DNA of 7,276 bases, taken from the IMG/VR virus record IMGVR_UViG_2547132272_000004, positions 1 to 7,276 of that record. One strand, 5' to 3'. The position numbers and the translations under genes are program-made. Under the pieces are notes generated by a model, which was given only the letters and a program-made list of their open reading frames with translations, had not been told where the DNA came from and did not search any database. Shown one piece after another: positions 1-7,276 of this stretch (positions are counted from its first letter, which is position 1; every line of letters starts with the position of its first letter). The stretch is from a virus (taxonomy: Duplodnaviria; Heunggongvirae; Uroviricota; Caudoviricetes).

Positions 1-10
1 AAAATTCACT

Positions 11-66
11 TTAAAAAGGGCGGACATCAGCCAGCAATGAAACTGATGCCGCCAAAAGGTAATCAA
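11..66 (-). ncRNA. dicF: DicF-like small RNA (3' end is an intrinsic terminator); 5' boundary approximate
   Basis: Minus strand reads ...GATTACCTTTTGGCGGCATCAGTTTCATTGCTGGCTGATGTCCGCCCTTTTTAAAG. The GGCGG-ATCAG ... CCGCCC-UUUUU part matches my recollection of the E. coli Qin DicF 3' half. It lies downstream of the dicA-side leftward operon, as in Qin. The 5' part differs from the K-12 sequence as I remember it. Confidence 0.4.
13..53 (-). terminator. Rho-independent terminator of the leftward early operon
   Basis: On the minus strand, stem GGCGGCATCAG / CTGATG(T)CCGCC (forward 19..30 pairs with 43..53, one bulged base), 12-nt loop, followed by a U5 run (forward A-run 13..17). Confidence 0.65.
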
Positions 67-393
67 CATGGGTTGTTGCAGCGGGGTTGTCACTCAGGCG
101 TATGGTCAACCTGACAACCCGGTGTTATCTCGAGGAAAAGATAGCCTCGCCATACTTACCGCCGCGCCATTTCGCGGATTGCCACAACCGGAAGCGCACG
201 GTCGAAGATGCCGGTGGCACGCAACAGAGGGAGAAATAACTTCGCCGTGCGCTTTCGCGTTATGCCCTGACTTTTCAGGGATATATCCTTTCAGTAAACT
301 GTCAGTGCCGGATTCTTATCCGTGTCCGGCGCACGACAACACGCTGTCACGTGTGGTCTCCATTCTCAACCAGTAACCTCAATGGAGGATAAA

Positions 394-636
394 ATGCCAA
401 CAAAACTATGCCCAGCCTGTAATTCTTCGTCTGATTTCTCAGAGAAGAATGGTTATTATATTTTTGATTGCCCGAAACACGGTGTATTCCATATATCAAA
501 ACTTGATGGGATATTTGTGAAACCAAGTCAGTATCAGGCTGACAAGTTAAATAAAATTCTCAATGCCAAAAGAGCGCCAGGCTATACGGGACCTATAGAG
601 GTTTTACCGCGTCCTCGTCTTGTGGAACTGGATTAA
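394..636 (+). CDS. hypothetical small zinc-ribbon-like protein (80 aa), antisense to the leftward operon
   Basis: ATG at 394 with GGAGG at 384..388 (5-nt spacer). CxxC (C6,C9) ... CxxH (C26,H29) pattern. Region visibly AT-rich. The 3' end overlaps the convergent 186-aa gene by 44 bp. An in-frame ATG at 382 has no SD. Confidence 0.5.
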   Translation: MPTKLCPACNSSSDFSEKNGYYIFDCPKHGVFHISKLDGIFVKPSQYQADKLNKILNAKRAPGYTGPIEVLPRPRLVELD

Positions 637-1153
637 ACCAGTGCTCCTGAATCGCTCGTATTTTTACCCTCGGATGATTGCCGGGGGTGATTATTAATTC
701 TGGCGGACATGGTTCTCCATTATGACAAATTGCGCTATAAGTGAAATCAGCCAGAGCAGTGCCGGTCATTATTATTCCGAACTTATCAAGCAGCGAGAGC
801 AAATCACGCAAACAGGAGTTATCAGTTTTTTCGTTATAAAATGAATCCCCTGATGCAGAGAGCATTTCACCTCGCTCTGCGATGCGTTTGACCATTTTCC
901 AGAATTCTTTTTTTGAATACTTTTCCTCGACATAAAAACCCATCGCCGAGGCAATCCGCTTTGCAGCTTCTTCAGTATCCTGGTTGTTTGTTACCGAAAC
1001 AGAGTACAATCCGATAAACGCATCGCGCACATTACGAGCCATATTATCAGTGTCTTTTTTCGTTACCGATTCCAATGCAAGTTCGTTCAGGTGTTGACGG
1101 AGTGTCTGTGCTGCAATCTCCTGGATTGATAGTGGTAAATCTTTAAATTCCAT
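593..1153 (-). CDS. hypothetical protein (186 aa), unknown function, in the early-left operon downstream of the ydfA/ydfB-like genes
   Basis: Long clean ORF. ATG at 1153..1151 with GGGG 6 nt upstream, 11 nt after the stop of the preceding small gene. Protein-like composition. No family recognised from the sequence. Confidence 0.7.
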   Translation of the reverse strand: MEFKDLPLSIQEIAAQTLRQHLNELALESVTKKDTDNMARNVRDAFIGLYSVSVTNNQDTEEAAKRIASAMGFYVEEKYSKKEFWKMVKRIAERGEMLSASGDSFYNEKTDNSCLRDLLSLLDKFGIIMTGTALADFTYSAICHNGEPCPPELIITPGNHPRVKIRAIQEHWFNPVPQDEDAVKPL

Positions 1154-1164
1154 CTTTAACCCCG

Positions 1165-1293
1165 TTAGCCGTTAGATTTTGCCGAACTGGAAAGCGCCTG
1201 TTTAAACTCACTGAAGCTGAGAGCTTCTTCGCCTTCGGCAAGGCCTTCGAAGTATTCTTCGTAAGCCTTTTCCATGATTGTGTCGAAATCCAT
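1165..1293 (-). CDS. small acidic protein (42 aa), YdfB-like by position and size
   Basis: MDFDTIMEKAYEEYFEGLAEGEEALSFSEFKQALSSSAKSNG. ATG 1293..1291 preceded by AGGTGA. Starts 1 nt after the stop of the upstream small gene. Same length and position as ydfB in Qin. An alternative in-frame ATG at 1335 would give 57 aa. Confidence 0.5.
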   Translation of the reverse strand: MDFDTIMEKAYEEYFEGLAEGEEALSFSEFKQALSSSAKSNG

Positions 1294-1294
1294 A

Positions 1295-1450
1295 TCACTC
1301 ACCTGAGTTTCTTTCCAGCCAGCGACGGGCACCATTTTCGGTTTTAAACGTTTTGCTTTTGGTATACGTCATCGCGGTGAACGTACCGTCCTGGTTGGGG
1401 AACACGCCACATACCAGAGATTCGCTGTTGCCAAGATCGATAGTATCCAT
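1295..1450 (-). CDS. small protein (51 aa), YdfA-like by position and size
   Basis: MDTIDLGNSESLVCGVFPNQDGTFTAMTYTKSKTFKTENGARRWLERNSGE. ATG 1450..1448 with GAGGT 4 nt upstream. First gene downstream of the leftward promoter. The ORF-track version extends to 1543, but that extension covers the promoter. Confidence 0.5.
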   Translation of the reverse strand: MDTIDLGNSESLVCGVFPNQDGTFTAMTYTKSKTFKTENGARRWLERNSGE

Positions 1451-1519
1451 GCTGACCTCATTTCCCCTTAACGCCGGGGTAGCGGAACTGTTTGCTGAGA
1501 ACACCGTGCGGTGTCTTGA

Positions 1520-1580
1520 TGGATGGTAATTTAGTTTTCTCATGAAAATTGGTCAAGTGTTTTTGATGAGAAAACTCAAT
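1520..1580 (-). promoter_or_regulatory. leftward early promoter (sigma70-like) with flanking operator inverted repeat
   Basis: On the minus strand: -35 TTGACC (forward 1551..1556), 17-bp spacer, -10 TAAATT (forward 1528..1533). An 11-bp inverted repeat, AGTTTTCTCAT (1533..1543) and ATGAGAAAACT (1566..1576), brackets the -35. The GAGAAAACT core recurs in the dicA/dicC intergenic palindrome. Confidence 0.5.
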
Positions 1581-1643
1581 ATTTAATGCAAAATAAAGCC
1601 AATACATTGAAATGTAAGGCTTTAAAATTAGTGAAGGGGGGGG

Positions 1644-2051
1644 TTATTGATGTTTGTTACGTTTGCGAGCTTCTAGTAGCTCGGTGAATAGGCGATTAAA
1701 ATTCTCAACGCGGGCACGGAGTTCGCTGATTTGTGCTTGCTGCTCTGATTTTGGAAGTGCGCGATACAATCGCAACATCTCCAACTCATCTTCCGATAAG
1801 TCTAAGGCGCTGTTGAGTGCAACTGGTGGATCTGGTGTTTTATCCTCGTCACCAAACAGTATCCAAGTTGGTGAACATTGCAATACCTCAGCCAGGCGAT
1901 GCAAATTTTGCCCGCGCGGGGCTGTATGGTCGCTTTCCCATAGTGAAATTGATGAGCCAGATACGCCAGCAGCTTTGCTTAAATCGTTTTGACTTAAACC
2001 AACCTGTTTGCGTCTTTCTCTAATTCGTTGGCCTAAAGTTTTCTCGTTCAT
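1644..2051 (-). CDS. dicA: DicA-like prophage repressor (XRE-family HTH, 135 aa, no peptidase domain)
   Basis: Translation MNEKTLGQRIRERRK...LQCSPTWILFGDEDK...RARVENFNRLFTELLEARKRNKHQ matches E. coli Qin DicA as I recall it, including LQCSPTWILFGDEDK and the C-terminal RARV.NFN.LF.ELL.AR motif. An upstream in-frame ATG at 2102 would add 17 aa but lies in the operator region. Confidence 0.85.
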   Translation of the reverse strand: MNEKTLGQRIRERRKQVGLSQNDLSKAAGVSGSSISLWESDHTAPRGQNLHRLAEVLQCSPTWILFGDEDKTPDPPVALNSALDLSEDELEMLRLYRALPKSEQQAQISELRARVENFNRLFTELLEARKRNKHQ

Positions 2052-2128
2052 ATTTAGATATCTTAATAACCCTTGACTTGAGATTCCTTGAGTGATTACC
2101 ATTGAGAAAACTCAACTTTGGAGGGGTG
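2052..2128. promoter_or_regulatory. divergent promoter/operator region between the DicA-like and DicC-like genes
   Basis: 77-bp intergenic region. Perfect 14-bp palindrome TTGAGAAAACTCAA at 2102..2115. Direct CTTGAG repeats at about 2078 and 2087. Plus-strand -35-like TTGACT at 2073..2078. 8-bp palindrome AGATATCT at 2056..2063. Exact -10 elements not confidently placed. Confidence 0.55.
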
Positions 2129-2356
2129 ATGTTTAAATCAGACGTAATTAATTTTTATGGGACGAAAGCCAAAGTAGCGAAAGCTGCTGGTGTTGATCCA
2201 TCTGCTGTTTCTCAATGGGGAGAACTGGTTCCTGAAGGTCGCGCGATGCGCCTGCAAGAGGCATCTGGCGGGGAACTTCAGTACGATCCCAAAGTTTATG
2301 ACGAATATCGTAAGGCAAAGCGTGCGGGGCGGTTGAACAATGAAAATCACCCCTGA
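2129..2356 (+). CDS. dicC: DicC/YdaS-like Cro-type HTH regulator (75 aa)
   Basis: ATG 2129 with GGAGG at 2120..2124. FYGTKAKVAKAAGVDPSAVSQWGELVPEGRAMRLQEASGG is the Cro/YdaS/DicC-type HTH signature. Divergent from the DicA-like gene. Confidence 0.75.
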   Translation: MFKSDVINFYGTKAKVAKAAGVDPSAVSQWGELVPEGRAMRLQEASGGELQYDPKVYDEYRKAKRAGRLNNENHP

Positions 2357-2891
2357 ACAGGTTTGTGAGGCTCTGGATGCCTGGGTATGCCGACCAGGAA
2401 TGACACAGGAGCAGGCGACGATATTAATCACAGAAGCCTTCTGGGCCCTGAAAGAACGCCCGAACATCGATGTTCAACGCGTCACGTTTGATGATGGCGC
2501 GGTTGATCAACGGGCGCTGGGCGTTAACCGGGTGAAGATATTCGAACGCTGGAAAGCTATCGACACCAGGGATAAGCGTGAAAAATTCACGGCGCTGATT
2601 CCGGCAATTATGGAGGCTATCCGGATCAGCGATTTCAGGTTGTATTGTGAAATTACTGACGGAAAAAGCATTACGTACATGATCGCCGGGTTAAACAAAG
2701 AATATGGCGATGTGGTGGAGTCCGGGCTGCTTTTTGCGGATCCAGCTGTTGTGGAACGTGAGACTGACGAGCTTATAGAAAAAGCTATTGCTTTCAAGCA
2801 CGCGTATCGTCAGCAATACCAATATTACTTTGCAGATAAACAAATATCTGTCTGGGGTTCGTATGAGTATCGATGCACTACGATGGGCTAA
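2340..2891 (+). CDS. CII-position protein, possibly YdaT-like (183 aa)
   Basis: ATG 2340 overlaps the DicC-like stop by 17 bp, and its 3' end overlaps the next gene (translational coupling). Position matches the RacR-YdaS-YdaT arrangement. The family name is assigned from position and length, not from a confirmed motif. Confidence 0.6.
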   Translation: MKITPEQVCEALDAWVCRPGMTQEQATILITEAFWALKERPNIDVQRVTFDDGAVDQRALGVNRVKIFERWKAIDTRDKREKFTALIPAIMEAIRISDFRLYCEITDGKSITYMIAGLNKEYGDVVESGLLFADPAVVERETDELIEKAIAFKHAYRQQYQYYFADKQISVWGSYEYRCTTMG

Positions 2892-3903
2892 AAAGGTGAA
2901 AACCGGCAGTTCATCCAGTAAGTCAGTATTGACCTGGCTTGCTGATATGTGCGGTGCCGATTTGTGTGCATACCCGTCTGTATCAGCCCTGGCAGAAGTA
3001 ACGGAACTGAACAAAAAGACTGTGCAGGACAGCTTACGACACCTGATGGAGATTGGGTTAATTGTTGATACCGGTGAGAGAAAAGGCAGAACAAAGCAAA
3101 TTGTGGTGTACCGACTTATCGGTGTAGAAGAAAGTGTTGCCGAGCCTGAATACACCCAAAAACGGGAGTCTTTAAAGGTGGGTAAAATTGGTGCTGTTAA
3201 TAAAAACAGTACCGAAAACGGTTATGTTTCAGCACAAAACAGACCCAAAAACGGAACTCTTAACTGCATGGAAAATAACCAAAGACACCCAAATTTTCCA
3301 TTAAAGACACCCAAAAACGGATCACGGAACCCAAAGGAACCCAAAGATCTAAACCCCACACATAACGCACGCGAGAGTGCTCCGACCAGTGAGCAGGATG
3401 TTTTGTCGTTACAGGCAACGCCCCCTGTATTCCTGGATGGCCTGAGCGAACCCATCGGAAAATTTCCGATGACCGATAGCTGGCATCCGTCGCGGGATTT
3501 TCGGCGACGGGCTGCGTTGTGGGGGATGGCTTTGCCGGAACCAGAATTTACACCTGCTGAACTTGCCGCCTTCCGGGACTACTGGGCAGCGGAGGGGAAA
3601 GTTTTCACGCAGGTTCAGTGGGAGCAGAAATTCGCCCGTCACGTAAATCACGTCAGGGCGCAGGCTAAACCAGTCAGCAAGGGGGTAAACCATGCAGCAG
3701 CACCAGGTGGCACCGCATCACGGGCAGTTCAGGAAATTCGGGCAGCACGTGAGCGGTGGGAGCGTGAAAACGGATTTATCAACGACGGAAACTGCCTGGA
3801 AGCTGTGGGAACTCATGGGGGAGGTTTATTCGAACCGCTGGACCCAGAAGAACGGGGCCGCACCTTCGAAGCTCTGGATTGCACAGATTGGCGCGATGAC
3901 TGA
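2863..3903 (+). CDS. replication initiator, lambda O-like organisation (N-terminal winged-HTH, iteron-encoding linker, C-terminal domain)
   Basis: ATG 2863 (MSIDALRWAKK...). The N-terminal 90 aa look like a wHTH DNA-binding domain. The central low-complexity stretch is encoded by iteron-like DNA repeats. A P-like gene follows. Confidence 0.7.
   Translation: MSIDALRWAKKVKTGSSSSKSVLTWLADMCGADLCAYPSVSALAEVTELNKKTVQDSLRHLMEIGLIVDTGERKGRTKQIVVYRLIGVEESVAEPEYTQKRESLKVGKIGAVNKNSTENGYVSAQNRPKNGTLNCMENNQRHPNFPLKTPKNGSRNPKEPKDLNPTHNARESAPTSEQDVLSLQATPPVFLDGLSEPIGKFPMTDSWHPSRDFRRRAALWGMALPEPEFTPAELAAFRDYWAAEGKVFTQVQWEQKFARHVNHVRAQAKPVSKGVNHAAAPGGTASRAVQEIRAARERWERENGFINDGNCLEAVGTHGGGLFEPLDPEERGRTFEALDCTDWRDD
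3152..3347. repeat. iteron-like direct repeats (putative prophage origin) inside the initiator gene
   Basis: Perfect 12-mer ACCCAAAAACGG at 3154..3165, 3243..3254 and 3309..3320. Degenerate copies at 3211..3221 (ACCGAAAACGG), 3288..3294, 3329..3337 and 3339..3347. AAAGACACCCAAA occurs at 3281..3293 and 3303..3315. Confidence 0.55.
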
Positions 3904-4357
3904 GCAGCAAATCCGGCAGGTCTGCCGCCAGTGCATGGACCGTTGCAGGGCAGGTGAAACATGGCCTCCGGACCTGGCTGAGTTTGTGGCGCTGATTTCG
4001 GAAAGCGGGGCCAATCCATTTGGTCTGACGGTGGATGCTGTGATGGAGGAGTACCGACGCTGGCGCAATGAGTCCTGGCGATACGACGGAAGCGATAAAT
4101 ATCCGTGGCCTCAGCCTGTGCTGTATCACATTTGCCTCGAGATGCGTTCAAAGGGGATTGAGCGCCAGATGACCGAAGGTGAGTTAAAACGACTTGCAGA
4201 ACGGCAACTGGCGAAATGGGCAAAGCATGTTGGTGACGGCTTCAGCGTTCCGCCCGTACGGCGGCAACTGGCAGCACCAAAACGCCCGTCGGGGCCAACA
4301 CCAATTGAGTTGCTGAAACAGGAGTATGAACGCCGGAAAGCGGCTGGTTTTGTATGA
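3692..4357 (+). CDS. lambda P-like replication protein (helicase loader); start uncertain
   Basis: The C-terminal half (..WPPDLAEFVAL..KYPWPQP..) resembles lambda P as I recall it. ATG 3692 has GGGGG 6 nt upstream but would overlap the O-like gene by 212 bp in another frame. Alternative starts are ATG 3815 and ATG 3896, the latter in an ATGACTGA coupling arrangement. Confidence 0.6.
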   Translation: MQQHQVAPHHGQFRKFGQHVSGGSVKTDLSTTETAWKLWELMGEVYSNRWTQKNGAAPSKLWIAQIGAMTEQQIRQVCRQCMDRCRAGETWPPDLAEFVALISESGANPFGLTVDAVMEEYRRWRNESWRYDGSDKYPWPQPVLYHICLEMRSKGIERQMTEGELKRLAERQLAKWAKHVGDGFSVPPVRRQLAAPKRPSGPTPIELLKQEYERRKAAGFV

Positions 4358-4387
4358 ATTGTGAAGGTGATTTTTTCAGGAGGATTT

Positions 4388-4615
4388 ATGGCGAAACCTT
4401 TTTCTCTCGAACAGCGGGAAGAGCTGAAGGCACGAATTATCGGATTGGTACGCAAAAATGGACGCATGACGATGTCACAGCTGGAGAGAGCGACGGGAGC
4501 AGGCTGGCATTCGGTTCGACGCTGCCTTGTGGATGTGCTGGCTTGTGGCGATTTATACATGTCCGGTAAATACGGTGTTTTTTGCATCAGAGCAGGCGTA
4601 TCGCGTATGGCGTAA
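4388..4615 (+). CDS. hypothetical small protein (75 aa), possible winged-helix DNA-binding fold
   Basis: ATG 4388 with AGGAGG at 4378..4383. The segment MTMSQLERATGAGWHSVRRCLVDVL is HTH-like. Contains the T6 run at 4578..4583. Confidence 0.6.
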   Translation: MAKPFSLEQREELKARIIGLVRKNGRMTMSQLERATGAGWHSVRRCLVDVLACGDLYMSGKYGVFCIRAGVSRMA

Positions 4616-4784
4616 GACACCGGAGAAAAGAACCGACCTGACACTGATTCGAAAGTTACCAGACGGAGAAATACGCCGCTACGACAGGCGTCAGAACATA
4701 ATCTGTAGCGAGTGCCGGAAGAGCGAAGCTATGCAGCGCGTACTGGCGTTTTATCAGGGTAATTTTCAGGAGGTGGTGCGGTGA
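4533..4784 (+). CDS. hypothetical ORF overlapping the preceding gene, possibly its frameshifted continuation
   Basis: No start codon or SD lies downstream of the 4615 stop in this frame. The 3' end is coupled to the next gene (GTGA at 4781..4784). A one-base change in the T6 run at 4578..4583 would fuse it in frame to the 4388 ORF. Confidence 0.35.
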   Translation: MCWLVAIYTCPVNTVFFASEQAYRVWRKTPEKRTDLTLIRKLPDGEIRRYDRRQNIICSECRKSEAMQRVLAFYQGNFQEVVR

Positions 4785-5047
4785 GTGAATCAAAATGCCA
4801 GGTTAAGGGCAACAAGATAGAACCATGTGCAGCACTGGCAAAGTCCCTTGAGCATGATGCTGAATACACGATGCGAAAAGGTCTGCTGATATACAAAGTC
4901 TGGAATGAGAATTTAACTCGCGCCCCTGATTTGGTGATGTTGCGTTCCGGTGAATTTTCTAAATCACCTATTCGAGTCTCATTTTGCCCGTTCTGTGGTG
5001 AAAGTCTGAAAACATGGAAAAAGGAGACAACCAGTGAGCAAGATTGA
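4781..5047 (+). CDS. hypothetical small protein (88 aa) with C-terminal CPFC motif
   Basis: GTG start at 4781 with AGGAGG at 4768..4773 (7-nt spacer). Cysteines at C6, C16 and C69-x2-C72. Confidence 0.6.
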   Translation: MSESKCQVKGNKIEPCAALAKSLEHDAEYTMRKGLLIYKVWNENLTRAPDLVMLRSGEFSKSPIRVSFCPFCGESLKTWKKETTSEQD

Positions 5048-5933
5048 CTATCAGGCACTGCGTGAGGCGGCGGAACGTGCAATTCCAGCAATGGAACGCC
5101 TGTTAATGTTGCCAGCTGATGATGATTTGTTAAGTGAACAGGAACTTAAAGATTACGGTGTGGATATTGATGCGCTCAACGCCTTCAAATTTCTGGCCGG
5201 ACCAGAAACCGTGCTGGCACTACTGGATGAACGGGAAAGAAACCAGCAATACATAAAACGCCGAGACCAGGAAAACGAAATGATGGTTGATGCCATGCAC
5301 GCGGCTATTGCCCTGACAAGTGTTGGAATAGACCTGGACGATTACGACGAATGCGTCTTGCGACTACATGAATGGGGCGCTTTACCTGACTATTGCATTG
5401 CGCTTTATGTGGATTTCGTTCACGGAATTGTATCGAAAAACAAACTTCTGGATTTTGGTTATATCAACGGTGCACCGGTATGGACGTTGCGTGATGAGCT
5501 GGAAGCCGCAGAGAACAACCTTATTGATAGTGAGTGCCATGTTGCTGAACTGGAAGAAGCGCTACGCGATAAGCAGGCGTTACTTGAAGCATCAGAGAAG
5601 CGCATAGCAGAACTGGAAACAAAAGCGAACCAGCAAACCAGAATAAGCGATAAGGGGCTGACAAAGCTGATTGCCGATGCTGACAAAATGCTGGGTATGC
5701 GTTCGCCGGTTATAGACAGCGAGTGGTGGACGCTTTTACGGCAGTTCCTGATTGAACTTCAGGATCGCCGCAGAAACAGCATTTCTGAATCTGGAATCCG
5801 TGCTGAAACCCTGAATGATTTAATCCGACATATTGACAGAAACCTGGATATTGACGCGATGAAATCGCCGTTTGAACTGTCATCTGAAATTGTGGATTAC
5901 GTTAATAGGCAACTGCACAAGGAGAATTCGTAA
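5034..5933 (+). CDS. hypothetical coiled-coil protein (299 aa); N-terminus reminiscent of Ead/Ea22-like prophage proteins
   Basis: GTG start at 5034 with AAGGAGA at 5021..5027. The N-terminal M.IDYQALREAAERA resembles Ead/Ea22-like N-termini from memory only. Central heptad-like acidic region (ELEAAENNLIDSECHVAELEEALRDKQALLEASEKRIAELE). Confidence 0.65.
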   Translation: MSKIDYQALREAAERAIPAMERLLMLPADDDLLSEQELKDYGVDIDALNAFKFLAGPETVLALLDERERNQQYIKRRDQENEMMVDAMHAAIALTSVGIDLDDYDECVLRLHEWGALPDYCIALYVDFVHGIVSKNKLLDFGYINGAPVWTLRDELEAAENNLIDSECHVAELEEALRDKQALLEASEKRIAELETKANQQTRISDKGLTKLIADADKMLGMRSPVIDSEWWTLLRQFLIELQDRRRNSISESGIRAETLNDLIRHIDRNLDIDAMKSPFELSSEIVDYVNRQLHKENS

Positions 5934-6109
5934 TGCAGGTGGCATTTGTTGGCTTGTTACCGCATCCGATCCGCCTTTGGGCGGATATGTCACTCATAAA
6001 AACGCATTTTTTTACTACTGATGGCGGCATTCCGGCACCAAAGCGCCGCCATACCGGTATTGCAGCGGCACGACGAGCAGCAAAGAGACGCAGGAGAGCA
6101 AAACGATGA
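5933..6109 (+). CDS. hypothetical small protein (58 aa), hydrophobic N-terminus and Arg/Lys-rich tail
   Basis: ATG 5933 overlaps the upstream stop (TAATG), with AAGGAGAA 6 nt upstream. Below the ORF-track size cutoff. Two GC-rich hairpins lie within it, so coding status is uncertain. Confidence 0.35.
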   Translation: MQVAFVGLLPHPIRLWADMSLIKTHFFTTDGGIPAPKRRHTGIAAARRAAKRRRRAKR

Positions 6110-6294
6110 AAAACCGTAAAGCAAAGATTCTGTTAGCTCGCAGAAACGGTGTTGGGGTCTGGCGATGGTTGAGGATTAGTAACAGACGAGTGAGGTTGAC
6201 GGGGTGTTGCGGGGTGATGGGTCACAGCTGTTGCAAAAAGCCCAGCGCGGCGCAAAACCGCTGGAAAAACCACTTGCGCACTAAAGGAGAGTGA
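6106..6294 (+). CDS. hypothetical small basic protein (62 aa), Arg- and Cys-rich
   Basis: ATG 6106 overlaps the previous stop (ATGA), with AGGAG 9 nt upstream. Stop is 1 nt before the HNH gene start. Unusual composition. Confidence 0.35.
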   Translation: MKNRKAKILLARRNGVGVWRWLRISNRRVRLTGCCGVMGHSCCKKPSAAQNRWKNHLRTKGE

Positions 6295-6295
6295 T

Positions 6296-6661
6296 ATGGC
6301 ACTGACGAAAAAACAACGTGCAGAACTGCGCATGAAGTTCGGCGGTCGCTGCGCTTATTGCGGCTGCGAACTTGGCGAAAAGTGGCATGCAGACCATGTA
6401 AAACCGGTCATTCGTTTTGATGGAAATATGCTTCACCAGGAACGTGACGATATATCCAACATGGTTCCGGCATGCCACCCATGCAATCTGCACAAGCATT
6501 GCAGTAGCCTGGAAGATTATCGGCGAATTATCAGTGATGGTCGTCGTGAATTCCTTGCGTCCGGGAAAGGCAAAGCGCTGGTTCGTATGGGATTGGTTGA
6601 AATGAAACCTGACCCGGTTGTGTTCTGGTTTGAAAAATATCAAGAAGGGGCTACAGCATGA
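6296..6661 (+). CDS. HNH endonuclease (121 aa)
   Basis: AAGGAGA at 6283..6289 before ATG 6296. Canonical HNH/zinc-finger pattern: CAYCGC ... HADHVKP ... [14 protein letters not shown]. Confidence 0.85.
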
Positions 6662-7002
6662 CGACTTTTACCAGAGAGCAGTTAATAGCTCACGCAGAGG
6701 AGACTATTGAAGCACAGAGACTGTGCATACCGGGCACAATCGACCATGACATCATCCGCACATATAAGATGGATATTGCTGTTCTGGAAATCGCACTGGT
6801 ATCGCTGGCAGCAGAGCCAGCCGGTAAATTGCATGAATACAAACCAGTGGGATATCAGCGTCTGGTTGATGAGTTAATCATGCTGGTAAAGCAGTTAACC
6901 TGGCAACTGAGGAAAGCGAAGCCAGACTGCAAATTACCGGATAAGGCGATGAGTTATCTGGAGCGGAACGGACTGATAAGCGTGGAGGATATTTTACGAT
7001 GA
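6658..7002 (+). CDS. hypothetical protein (114 aa)
   Basis: ATG 6658 overlaps the HNH stop (ATGA), consistent with translational coupling. Protein-like composition. No family recognised. Confidence 0.6.
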
Positions 7003-7235
7003 CTGGCCTGAAGCATTCACAACGGTAGGAATTGCGATGGCAGTGGCGCTGGTGGTGTATTCGATTTGCCGCTGGGGATAAAAACGGTTTGCGGGAAAAA
7101 GGGAGTTAAGTAAAATTGCTGCGGGTGCTTGAGGCTATCTGTCTCAGGCATGAACACCAAAAGGCAGATAGAGAAAAGCCCCAGTTAACATTACGCGTCC
7201 TGCAAGACGCTTAACATTAATCTGAGGCCCAATCT

Positions 7236-7276
7236 ATGTCTCACAAATGTAGGTTAGCCTCTTACGTGCCGAAAGG
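7236..7276 (+). CDS. possible 5' end of a CDS running off the window (MSHKCRLASYVPK...)
   Basis: ATG 7236 with GAGG at 7224..7227. Open to the window end. Only 13 codons are visible. Confidence 0.25.
   Translation, partial: MSHKCRLASYVPK

Follow-up and report, generated by a model that had tools for sequence, protein, structure and literature searches.

The window analysed here, a 7,276-nt stretch of a Caudoviricetes genome (IMG/VR record IMGVR_UViG_2547132272_000004, positions 1 to 7,276), is organised like a lambdoid immunity region of the DicA/DicC type. Within its leftward operon lies a pair of convergent genes, a small one coding for 80 amino acids (aa) (394..636, plus strand) and a large one coding for 186 aa (593..1153, minus strand), whose coding sequences overlap at their 3′ ends by 44 bp (593..636), that is over the last 14 codons and the stop codon of each. 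As judged from sequence comparison, the pair belongs to a cassette that is one of at least 11 alternatives at the early-left (dicBF-type) slot of enterobacterial (Escherichia coli/Salmonella) lambdoid prophages, and that is held between two conserved anchors, the sequence coding for the N-terminal domain of the large protein and the leader of the small gene. We are highly confident of this anatomy and of the cassette logic that goes with it. As to its role, the pair may, by analogy with known prophage systems, be a defence/self-immunity module in which the small protein provides the defence; we give this reading a probability of roughly 0.35–0.4.

An exchangeable segment in place of ydfC

Similarity to the Qin prophage of E. 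coli K-12 ends at window positions 335 and 1167, and on both sides of the gene pair the two sequences are collinear: 1521..1167 is 97% identical to ydfA-ydfB of Qin, and 335..1 matches, at 79% identity, the long untranslated region with dicF. The two-gene cassette between these boundaries (336..1166) stands in the place of a 310-bp Qin segment with ydfC, to which it has no similarity. It was found, in the same or a closely variant form (at least 80% query coverage), in 410 of 5,426 complete E. coli genomes (~7.6%). The position of ydfC in Qin is identical, between ydfB and the dicF leader, but ydfC is dissimilar in sequence to both proteins and Qin has no convergent small gene there; tblastn of the two proteins against the K-12 locus gave nothing significant (the lowest E-value was 2.4 with the small protein and 8.8 with the large one).

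An earlier, sequence-only reading of the window had described the two open reading frames (ORFs), the 44-bp overlap, a strong Shine–Dalgarno (SD) sequence and a location in the ydfC slot between ydfB and DicF, all of which are as claimed. It had also proposed a horizontally acquired insert, and the segment is indeed exchangeable, being an exact replacement of ydfC; the insert was, however, pictured as a 186-aa cargo gene plus an antisense ORF, and this part has to be revised since the unit consists of the C-terminal domain of the large gene together with the small gene (see below). Its idea of exchangeable cargo in a defence-type location, with possible antisense coupling, is thus sensible as far as it goes, though incomplete. 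The AT-richness it pointed to is real but modest: the GC content of the cassette is 42.5%, compared with 48.3% for the window and 52.5% and 44.9% for the flanks. It is the lowest-GC stretch of its size in the window, by only ~6 points, and only 0.8% of 831-bp windows are equally low.

Anatomy of the two genes

The large gene is an ATG ORF which starts 11 nt past the stop codon of the ydfB-like gene. Its domain anatomy was derived from PHROGs, a word-indexed search and an exhaustive profile search of 1.84 billion representatives, all of which agree. The N-terminal domain (aa 1 to ~60; 974..1153, minus strand) is widespread, being present in many prophage proteins either alone or joined to other C-termini. 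The C-terminal domain (aa 79–186; 596..919, minus strand) is rare: profile matches, which cover residues 79–178, come only from close relatives and from one distant stand-alone protein, P0106 (119 aa, 37% identity). The AlphaFold2 (AF2) model of the large protein is helical but poor, with a predicted local distance difference test (pLDDT) score of 57. RefSeq homologues are labelled hypothetical, as is the protein in all other sources except one RefSeq record (locus L026 1757..2317, NZ_OZ547217.1, WP_432757426.1), whose label, 'RNA-binding protein', was rejected as unsupported by Pfam and NCBIfam.

The small gene is enclosed in a longer ORF that opens with GTG (322..636, plus strand; 104 aa). 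Comparison of the loci indicates that the ATG at 394 is the conserved start codon: an SD sequence (GGAGG, 384–388) lies 5 nt before it and is conserved across loci, and all homologues are called at 80 aa. The longer GTG ORF and a 135-aa version in RefSeq are unsupported because indels of 1–2 nt break the frame upstream of this ATG. The family is systematically mis-annotated or under-annotated: in two records (L002 3230..3637, from UMNF18, and P0089) the small gene is given as a coding sequence of 135–136 aa whose upstream extension is not conserved, in the closest RefSeq record (L001) it is unannotated, and the homologue in locus L011 was not called by the gene finder.

Its absence from the closest RefSeq record, its lengthening in others and the lack of an above-threshold Pfam family might suggest that the 80-aa ORF arose by chance on the antisense strand or exists only through mis-annotation. 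This is hardly credible, and the substitution pattern refutes it. Homologous pairs, with large proteins of 66–98% identity, were taken from contigs of E. coli and Salmonella, and both ORFs are called in each related contig; the length of the small ORF is constant at 80 codons across homologues of 64–96% identity, and dN/dS in its own frame is 0.07–0.24 (Nei–Gojobori). Values near 0.1 are confined to this frame: between the window and L004, dN/dS is 0.13 in the small-gene frame and 0.96, 1.25, 1.29, 1.18 and 0.41 in the other five. A 44%-identical homologue in the same arrangement exists in a distant prophage, and the protein matches a PHROGs family (phrog_10133, E = 1e-27). The ORF is thus present in related prophages and under purifying selection there, its absence from them being one of the outcomes by which the sequence-only reading could have been overturned.

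The N-terminus of the small protein carries a CPAC motif at residues 6–9 and a CPxH motif at residues 26–29 (together CPxC...CPxH), in which C6, C9, C26 and H29 are invariant. The AF2 model (pLDDT 69) consists of four N-terminal strands followed by a helix (aa 46–59) and a low-confidence tail. As for the zinc ribbon announced by the sequence-only reading, its residues are there, but the protein reaches only 14.7 bits with Pfam Zn_ribbon_TFIIB, whose cut-off is 22, and the best fold match is to ZifS (E = 0.1); zinc-ribbon-like is a plausible label rather than a proven one because the Pfam score is below its cut-off. The protein is basic (isoelectric point (pI) 8.8), and by composition both proteins were judged to be soluble and cytoplasmic.

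Searches of Pfam, NCBIfam, PADLOC and PDB (by sequence and by profile) with both proteins and with the type-A pair described below gave sub-threshold matches only, for example to S100-A4 (E = 0.05) and Cas11a (E = 0.003), and a match of the 186-aa protein to a characterised protein, which would have spoken against the sequence-only reading, was not among the results of these searches. Foldseek comparison of the AF2 models with PDB and BFVD yielded nothing at E ≤ 0.001; the sole match of probability 1.0, from Escherichia phage phi191 (E = 0.09), is a 52-aa homologue of the N-terminal domain. When the large protein was compared with the phage collection by tblastn, matches were to the N-terminal domain only, in E. 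coli, Shigella and Shiga toxin (Stx) phages. A profile search of the genome contigs with the alignment of small proteins found no match. By these comparisons, both proteins are unlike anything characterised.

Alternative cassettes at the slot

The slot was compared across related prophages, as the sequence-only reading had advised, and is polymorphic. Relatives of the large protein that share the N-terminal domain only (the 212-aa 'Ybl81' type, here type A, the pair of the window being type B) are also faced by a convergent small gene, which abuts them stop to stop and codes for an unrelated 69-aa protein; one copy of this pair is in Salmonella, in a different element. The ~90 nt before both types of small gene are nearly identical, and so are the first five codons, MP(T/N)K(P/L/K). 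This leader (305..393, plus strand, in the window) comprises hairpin 1 (305..334), hairpin 2 (335..358) and the SD sequence, and shows 90% mean column identity across loci with two unrelated small genes and unrelated upstream DNA. Folding of the plus-strand RNA yields both hairpins (z = −2.4). One compensatory change (G-C to A-U, in L032) was seen in hairpin 1, which is present in Qin too.

A scan for hairpin 1 recovered at least 69 distinct loci. About 55 nt past the hairpin, an SD sequence and an ATG open small ORFs that belong to at least 11 unrelated families (57–101 aa), each converging on an early-left gene and, in most types, overlapping it. Many of the partner genes begin with MEFKDLP and then carry yet another C-terminus. 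The small ORF of L251 and L261 (94 aa, MAKFTVRIELRD...) reaches 21.2 bits with the Pfam GhoS model, whose cut-off is 21, and has a weak YmfI-family score. GhoS is a type V antitoxin endoribonuclease.

YmfI is one of the alternative small-gene families (NCBIfam, E = 5e-31), being 56% identical to a slot family of 100 aa. In the e14 prophage of K-12, ymfI (plus strand) converges on ymfJ (minus strand) directly after the repressor gene ymfK, with an overlap of 63 bp. Residues 61–94 of YmfJ are 47% identical to the C-terminus of the N-domain partner of the slot family, and their N-termini differ. The leader in e14 resembles that of L011. This second leader type, found upstream of ymfI in e14 (L320) and in L011, is common to two unrelated small genes (YmfI and the zinc-ribbon homologue) and has the pattern GTGC(G)CCTGTCTTTT..CCACTTCAGGCT.GGTG.TA..CTGGAGTTCTCACACA.CCAG.AAG. 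In the Rac prophage of K-12, this slot is taken by sieB, which is encoded on the opposite strand and shares 4 bp with ydaF, and the comparison with sieB-type positions made in the sequence-only reading was therefore apt. Both ymfI-ymfJ and sieB-ydaF are among 165 convergent excludons detected in MG1655 in at least 50% of 58 RNA-seq sets (PMC12288877), and late in the SOS response the expression of ymfJ rises strongly (PMC11002266).

Co-inheritance of the small gene and the C-terminal domain

Pairing was counted in 88 IMG/VR contigs that bear the leader. Type-B small genes face the type-B C-terminal domain (C_B) in 13 of 13 cases and type-A small genes face that of type A (C_A) in 74 of 74, all of them convergently. 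Among homologues, the identity of the small protein to that of the window follows the identity of the C-terminal domain (r = 0.99) much more closely than that of the N-terminal domain (r = 0.57). The most informative locus is L011. Here P0106, encoded directly after the repressor of another prophage, is a stand-alone version of the C-terminal domain with no N-terminal domain, and the opposite strand carries the gene of a small-protein homologue (91 aa, 44% identity) which is convergent with it, overlaps it by 71 bp and has a different leader. Because the N-terminal domain is lacking from this pair, the small gene goes with the C-terminal domain rather than with the N-terminal one. Small proteins at least 95% identical to each other are encoded beside repressors that are only 4–27% identical, and for this reason the small gene is not specific to a repressor. 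Taken together, these comparisons of homologous loci show that the small gene is passed on as one unit with the C-terminal domain of its large partner, and that this unit shifts among N-terminal contexts, leaders, repressors and prophage types.

The size of the overlap is variable: 44 bp in the window, 20 bp in L004 and L005, 71 bp in L011 and 0 bp in type A, where the stop codons abut. The conserved trait is the tail-to-tail layout without a spacer, not the extent of the overlap. The C-terminal tails of both proteins are of low confidence in the AF2 models. Charges are complementary in three of three pairs, the small proteins having pI values of 8.1–8.8 and the C-terminal domains of 4.7–5.9.

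Putative transcription signals and predicted transcript overlap

A putative sigma-70 promoter for the small gene was read from the sequence at 272..300 (plus strand; TTTTCA, 17 nt, TAAACT), and the transcript start that it predicts coincides with the first bases of hairpin 1. A −10-like hexamer lies 3–4 nt before hairpin 1 in four unrelated contexts (TAAACT, TAAAAT, TGGTATAAC and TATTAT). We infer that the mRNA starts at hairpin 1; the promoter itself is argued from its position only.

Two observations on the leader may be added. The loop of hairpin 2 (window 339..354, and the same site in L001–L007, L030 and L032) occurs in two forms, ACACG-CTGTCA-CGTGT and ACACG-TGACAG-CGTGT, which are exact reverse complements, as if a 16-nt palindrome-flanked segment had been inverted. 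A hairpin that would sequester the SD sequence (CTCCATT / AATGGAG) was considered and dropped, as it is not in the minimum free energy structure of the plus strand. In a metagenome scan with a 17-mer, 118 of the 120 matches listed were chance.

A terminator-like hairpin (664..690, plus strand) is situated 28 nt past the stop codon of the small gene, inside the coding sequence of the large gene. It is kept in the divergent L004 and absent from L011 and type A; as evidence for a terminator it is weak, because the hairpin coincides with invariant codons (ITPGNHPRV). Since neither a spacer nor a bidirectional terminator separates the two genes, full-length transcripts must overlap. With 44 bp of shared coding sequence and no terminator between them, the predicted transcripts have the arrangement of a convergent excludon; among analogues, RNA-seq has shown such overlap for ymfI-ymfJ and sieB-ydaF.

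Decay of the pair

In type A, the small gene is cut to 17 aa with its 212-aa partner intact in 6–7 loci, and the reverse case, a broken large gene with an intact small one, was seen in 1–2 loci. The truncation, noted in L113, L059, L099 and five other IMG/VR loci, is caused by a 1-nt length change in the run of A residues right after the MPNKK codons; this run may be prone to mutation or phase-variable. Neither type-B gene is intact in the O157:H7 lineage (L027, from E. coli O157:H7 ECP19-798, and L017–L024): the small gene has a stop at codon 62, and a frameshift reduces the large gene to 129 aa, both fragments being annotated as hypothetical in RefSeq. Co-decay was considered as evidence for coupling and set aside, since it concerns one type-B lineage only and type A loses the small gene with the large one intact. 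Taken with the breakage of both genes in O157:H7 and the complementary charges, the direction of loss leans, if thinly, towards a small protein that would be the agent expressed in the lysogen and a C-terminal domain that would be its induced neutraliser.

Possible function of the pair and rival explanations

Under the defence/self-immunity reading, the small gene would have a promoter of its own and be transcribed in the direction opposed to the repressed early-left operon; the 80-aa protein would therefore be made in the lysogen and act against invading phages or against other competitors. Once the DicA-type repressor no longer acts, transcription of the leftward operon would run antisense through the small gene and damp it, as in an excludon or a noncontiguous operon, and would also yield the 186-aa protein. 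The acidic C-terminal domain of the latter would bind the basic small protein as its cognate partner and neutralise it, and the lytic programme of the prophage itself would thereby be spared. The shared N-terminal domain may provide a common function or be merely a recombination anchor. A broader version can be formulated, according to which the early-left slot (of the Qin/dicBF type, and of e14 with its own leader) is hypervariable, is anchored by a promoter and stores many unrelated anti-phage small proteins expressed in lysogeny, each with an induced cognate neutraliser; this generalisation is tentative, and in our view rather doubtful. The same degree of doubt attaches to the idea that the neutraliser, made only upon induction, is in many cases a C-terminal domain which varies and is joined to one and the same N-terminal domain.

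Several observations weigh against the defence/self-immunity reading. Strict pairing in E. coli would also be expected from linkage between two recombination anchors, and independent evidence of coupling rests on two distant cases, L011 and e14. The decay counts are small and not phylogenetically independent. The candidate promoter is weak (8 of 12 matches to the consensus) and was missed by a scan with a threshold of 9 of 12, and the structure models are of low confidence (pLDDT 57 for the large protein and 69 for the small one). A tblastn search of 50,697 deposited phage genomes gave no match to the small protein. Neither sequence nor fold similarity was found to TerI, anti-TerI, Tai, Ati or any PADLOC defence model. 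Finally, many of the carriers are defective Qin-like prophages, in which self-immunity during lytic growth is moot.

The same data can be read with the polarity reversed, the C-terminal domain being a harmful effector made on derepression and the small gene its constitutive cognate neutraliser. It is the hallmark of polymorphic toxin loci that a variable C-terminal region follows a conserved N-terminal one and has a small cognate gene downstream; in addition, the small partner is basic and the C-terminal domain acidic, the O157:H7 lineage lost both genes together, and the dicBF operon is known for toxic products (PMC5069750). We nevertheless think this unlikely, as the losses in type A (the small gene 6–7 times with the large one intact, the reverse 1–2 times) are the opposite of what is expected for an essential antidote, no toxin, toxin–antitoxin (TA) or nuclease domain was detected in any C-terminal domain, and there is no secretion or translocation module. 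To the same low degree we can accept that the two are independent accessory genes in one slot, linked only by regulation (an excludon in which lysogenic and lytic expression exclude each other), with no coupling between the proteins and with a co-inheritance that is positional. The E. coli pairing is as linkage predicts, the genes are tail to tail with neither a spacer nor a bidirectional terminator, and sieB-ydaF of Rac offers an excludon with no known binding between the products. However, the small-gene/C-domain pair persists at 37–44% identity, behind another leader and with no N-terminal domain, YmfI and the C-terminus of YmfJ show the same pattern, and the divergence of the partners is tightly matched. 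As two pairs of small gene and C-terminus (those of the zinc-ribbon protein and of YmfI) each occur behind two leaders, linkage alone is hard to accept.

A regulatory role for the small protein, acting on the prophage switch or on the dicBF transcript as an antirepressor or as a zinc ribbon involved in DicF processing, appears improbable. The protein is small, basic and zinc-ribbon-like, its gene adjoins the immunity region and the dicF leader, and small phage proteins that inactivate cI are documented; small-ORF (smORF) antirepressors are known from modules that combine a transcription factor (TF) with such an ORF (TF-smORF; PMC10432266). Yet a small protein of at least 95% identity accompanies repressors of 4–27% identity, and this independence of the repressor type led us to reject the antirepressor idea. 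Moreover, the gene occurs in contexts without dicB or dicF (L007, L011 and, for the type-A pair, L032), no helix-turn-helix (HTH) transcription factor is divergently paired with it, and the presence of at least 11 unrelated small proteins in the slot fits roles specific to a partner better than roles specific to a switch.

Other features of the window

The gene directly upstream of the cassette is ydfB-like (1165..1293, minus strand; RefSeq homologues are labelled ydfB). Downstream in the early-left transcript lies a DicF-like small RNA (18..68, minus strand), detected with Rfam RF00039 at 34.1 bits (E = 3.2e-5), below the gathering score of 48, and there is a terminator-like hairpin at 50..23. 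Between dicF and the promoter of the small gene, two non-coding blocks (78..120 and 150..200) are strongly conserved on both strands; they include an inverted repeat, GGGTTGTCA...TGACAACCC, and presumably reflect structure in the dicF precursor.

The repressor gene (minus strand; delimited as 1644..2051 or 1644..2102) is DicA-like, with a Pfam HTH_3 match (E = 1e-16) and RefSeq homologues labelled dicA or HTH; control of the leftward operon, with the 186-aa gene inside it, by this repressor is taken from established knowledge of Qin (PMC5069750). A Cro-like gene (2102..2356, plus strand) follows. To the right are YdaT and replication genes, and to the left is the leftward operon with its ydfA-like (DUF1391) and ydfB-like genes. 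In L027 (3881..4359) and L029 (1456..1937), a TA pair of the RelB/RelE type (PaaA2/ParE) was found between the repressor gene and ydfA, and this gap is a second variable slot of the same operon in some of the prophages that carry the cassette. A 121-aa ORF (6296..6661, plus strand) displays an HNH-like motif recognised by eye (CAYCG...HADH...HPCNLHKH). At its right end the window runs out of a sok antitoxin RNA (7123..7276, plus strand; Rfam RF01794, 101 bits, E = 1e-22), which indicates a hok/sok-type type I TA locus at the border of the replication/nin region.

Implications

If the defence/self-immunity reading is correct, a slot annotated as hypothetical or left unannotated would hold a family of very small defence/self-immunity pairs, built on a common chassis of shared leader and shared N-terminal domain, with other cassettes filling the slot in further genomes. 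The principle of noncontiguous operons established for TERi, Tai and Tha would then reach the classic dicBF operon, and the K-12 y-genes ymfI and ymfJ would acquire a testable role and serve as a ready-made model. It would also provide a rule for mining genomes for small anti-phage proteins and their natural inhibitors (locate the leader and read the next ORF), pointing to a large unexplored reservoir of miniature defence/self-immunity pairs. Even if the function is different, anchored cassette exchange accounts for the mosaicism of the region.

Comparison with known systems

As in polymorphic toxin-CT/immunity loci, the N-terminal region of the large gene is conserved, its C-terminal domain varies and the small gene directly downstream is cognate to that domain, the whole variable unit being exchanged through recombination in conserved flanks. 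The differences are that no toxin, translocation or receptor-binding domain and no structural match were detected, and that the decay pattern argues against the small gene as an indispensable antidote, which also sets the pair apart from colicins. In pore-forming colicin operons, the immunity gene is on the opposite strand and has its own promoter. The pair does not behave as a type II TA system, the genes being convergent and matches to TA families being absent from the Pfam, NCBIfam and PADLOC searches.

The sieB-ydaF and ymfI-ymfJ pairs are the first early-left genes after the repressor, as in the slot considered here, and they overlap at their 3′ ends by 4 bp and 63 bp, respectively. The 80-aa protein has no sequence relationship to SieB or YmfI, and SieB is in addition an annotated superinfection-exclusion protein of twice its size. 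Searches of Pfam and NCBIfam gave no SieB match for the small protein, which is hydrophilic (grand average of hydropathy −0.41), so that position alone is common to the two.

In the TERi system of Listeria monocytogenes comK prophages, the gene for the 65-aa TerI is embedded, on the other strand, in the early lytic module, has its own promoter and overlaps the anti-TerI2 ORF, whose product binds TerI; this promoter is conserved in 96% of prophages, with unrelated small genes alternating downstream, and the function of TERi is the inhibition of DNA packaging (bioRxiv 10.1101/2025.02.27.640495). In the window, likewise, the small gene (plus strand) opposes the early operon and overlaps one of its ORFs within the leftward operon controlled by DicA, and a conserved leader precedes at least 11 alternating unrelated small genes, each converging on an early-left gene. 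The present cases differ in that they come from Gram-negative lambdoid prophages, bear no sequence similarity to TERi and have as partner a variable C-terminal domain fused to a conserved N-terminal one. Homology to TerI, anti-TerI, TaiEcA or AtiEcA was not found in the searched collection, which includes Listeria phage A500 and phi80.

Tai/Ati of phi80 and Tha/Ith of Staphylococcus aureus prophages combine defence and counter-defence in a noncontiguous operon, in which the cognate products bind each other and the lytic transcript lowers expression of the defence gene (PMC11364771; PMC11087260). Tai differs from the small protein in being 26 kDa in size and in lying in the late Q-controlled operon near the packaging genes, and it has no homology with the pair of the window. 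The likeness is in the arrangement, a defence gene opposed to a lytic operon that holds the adjacent cognate counter-defence gene; by this analogy, the layout described here most resembles that of the prophage defence/self-immunity noncontiguous operons represented by TERi, Tai/Ati and Tha/Ith.

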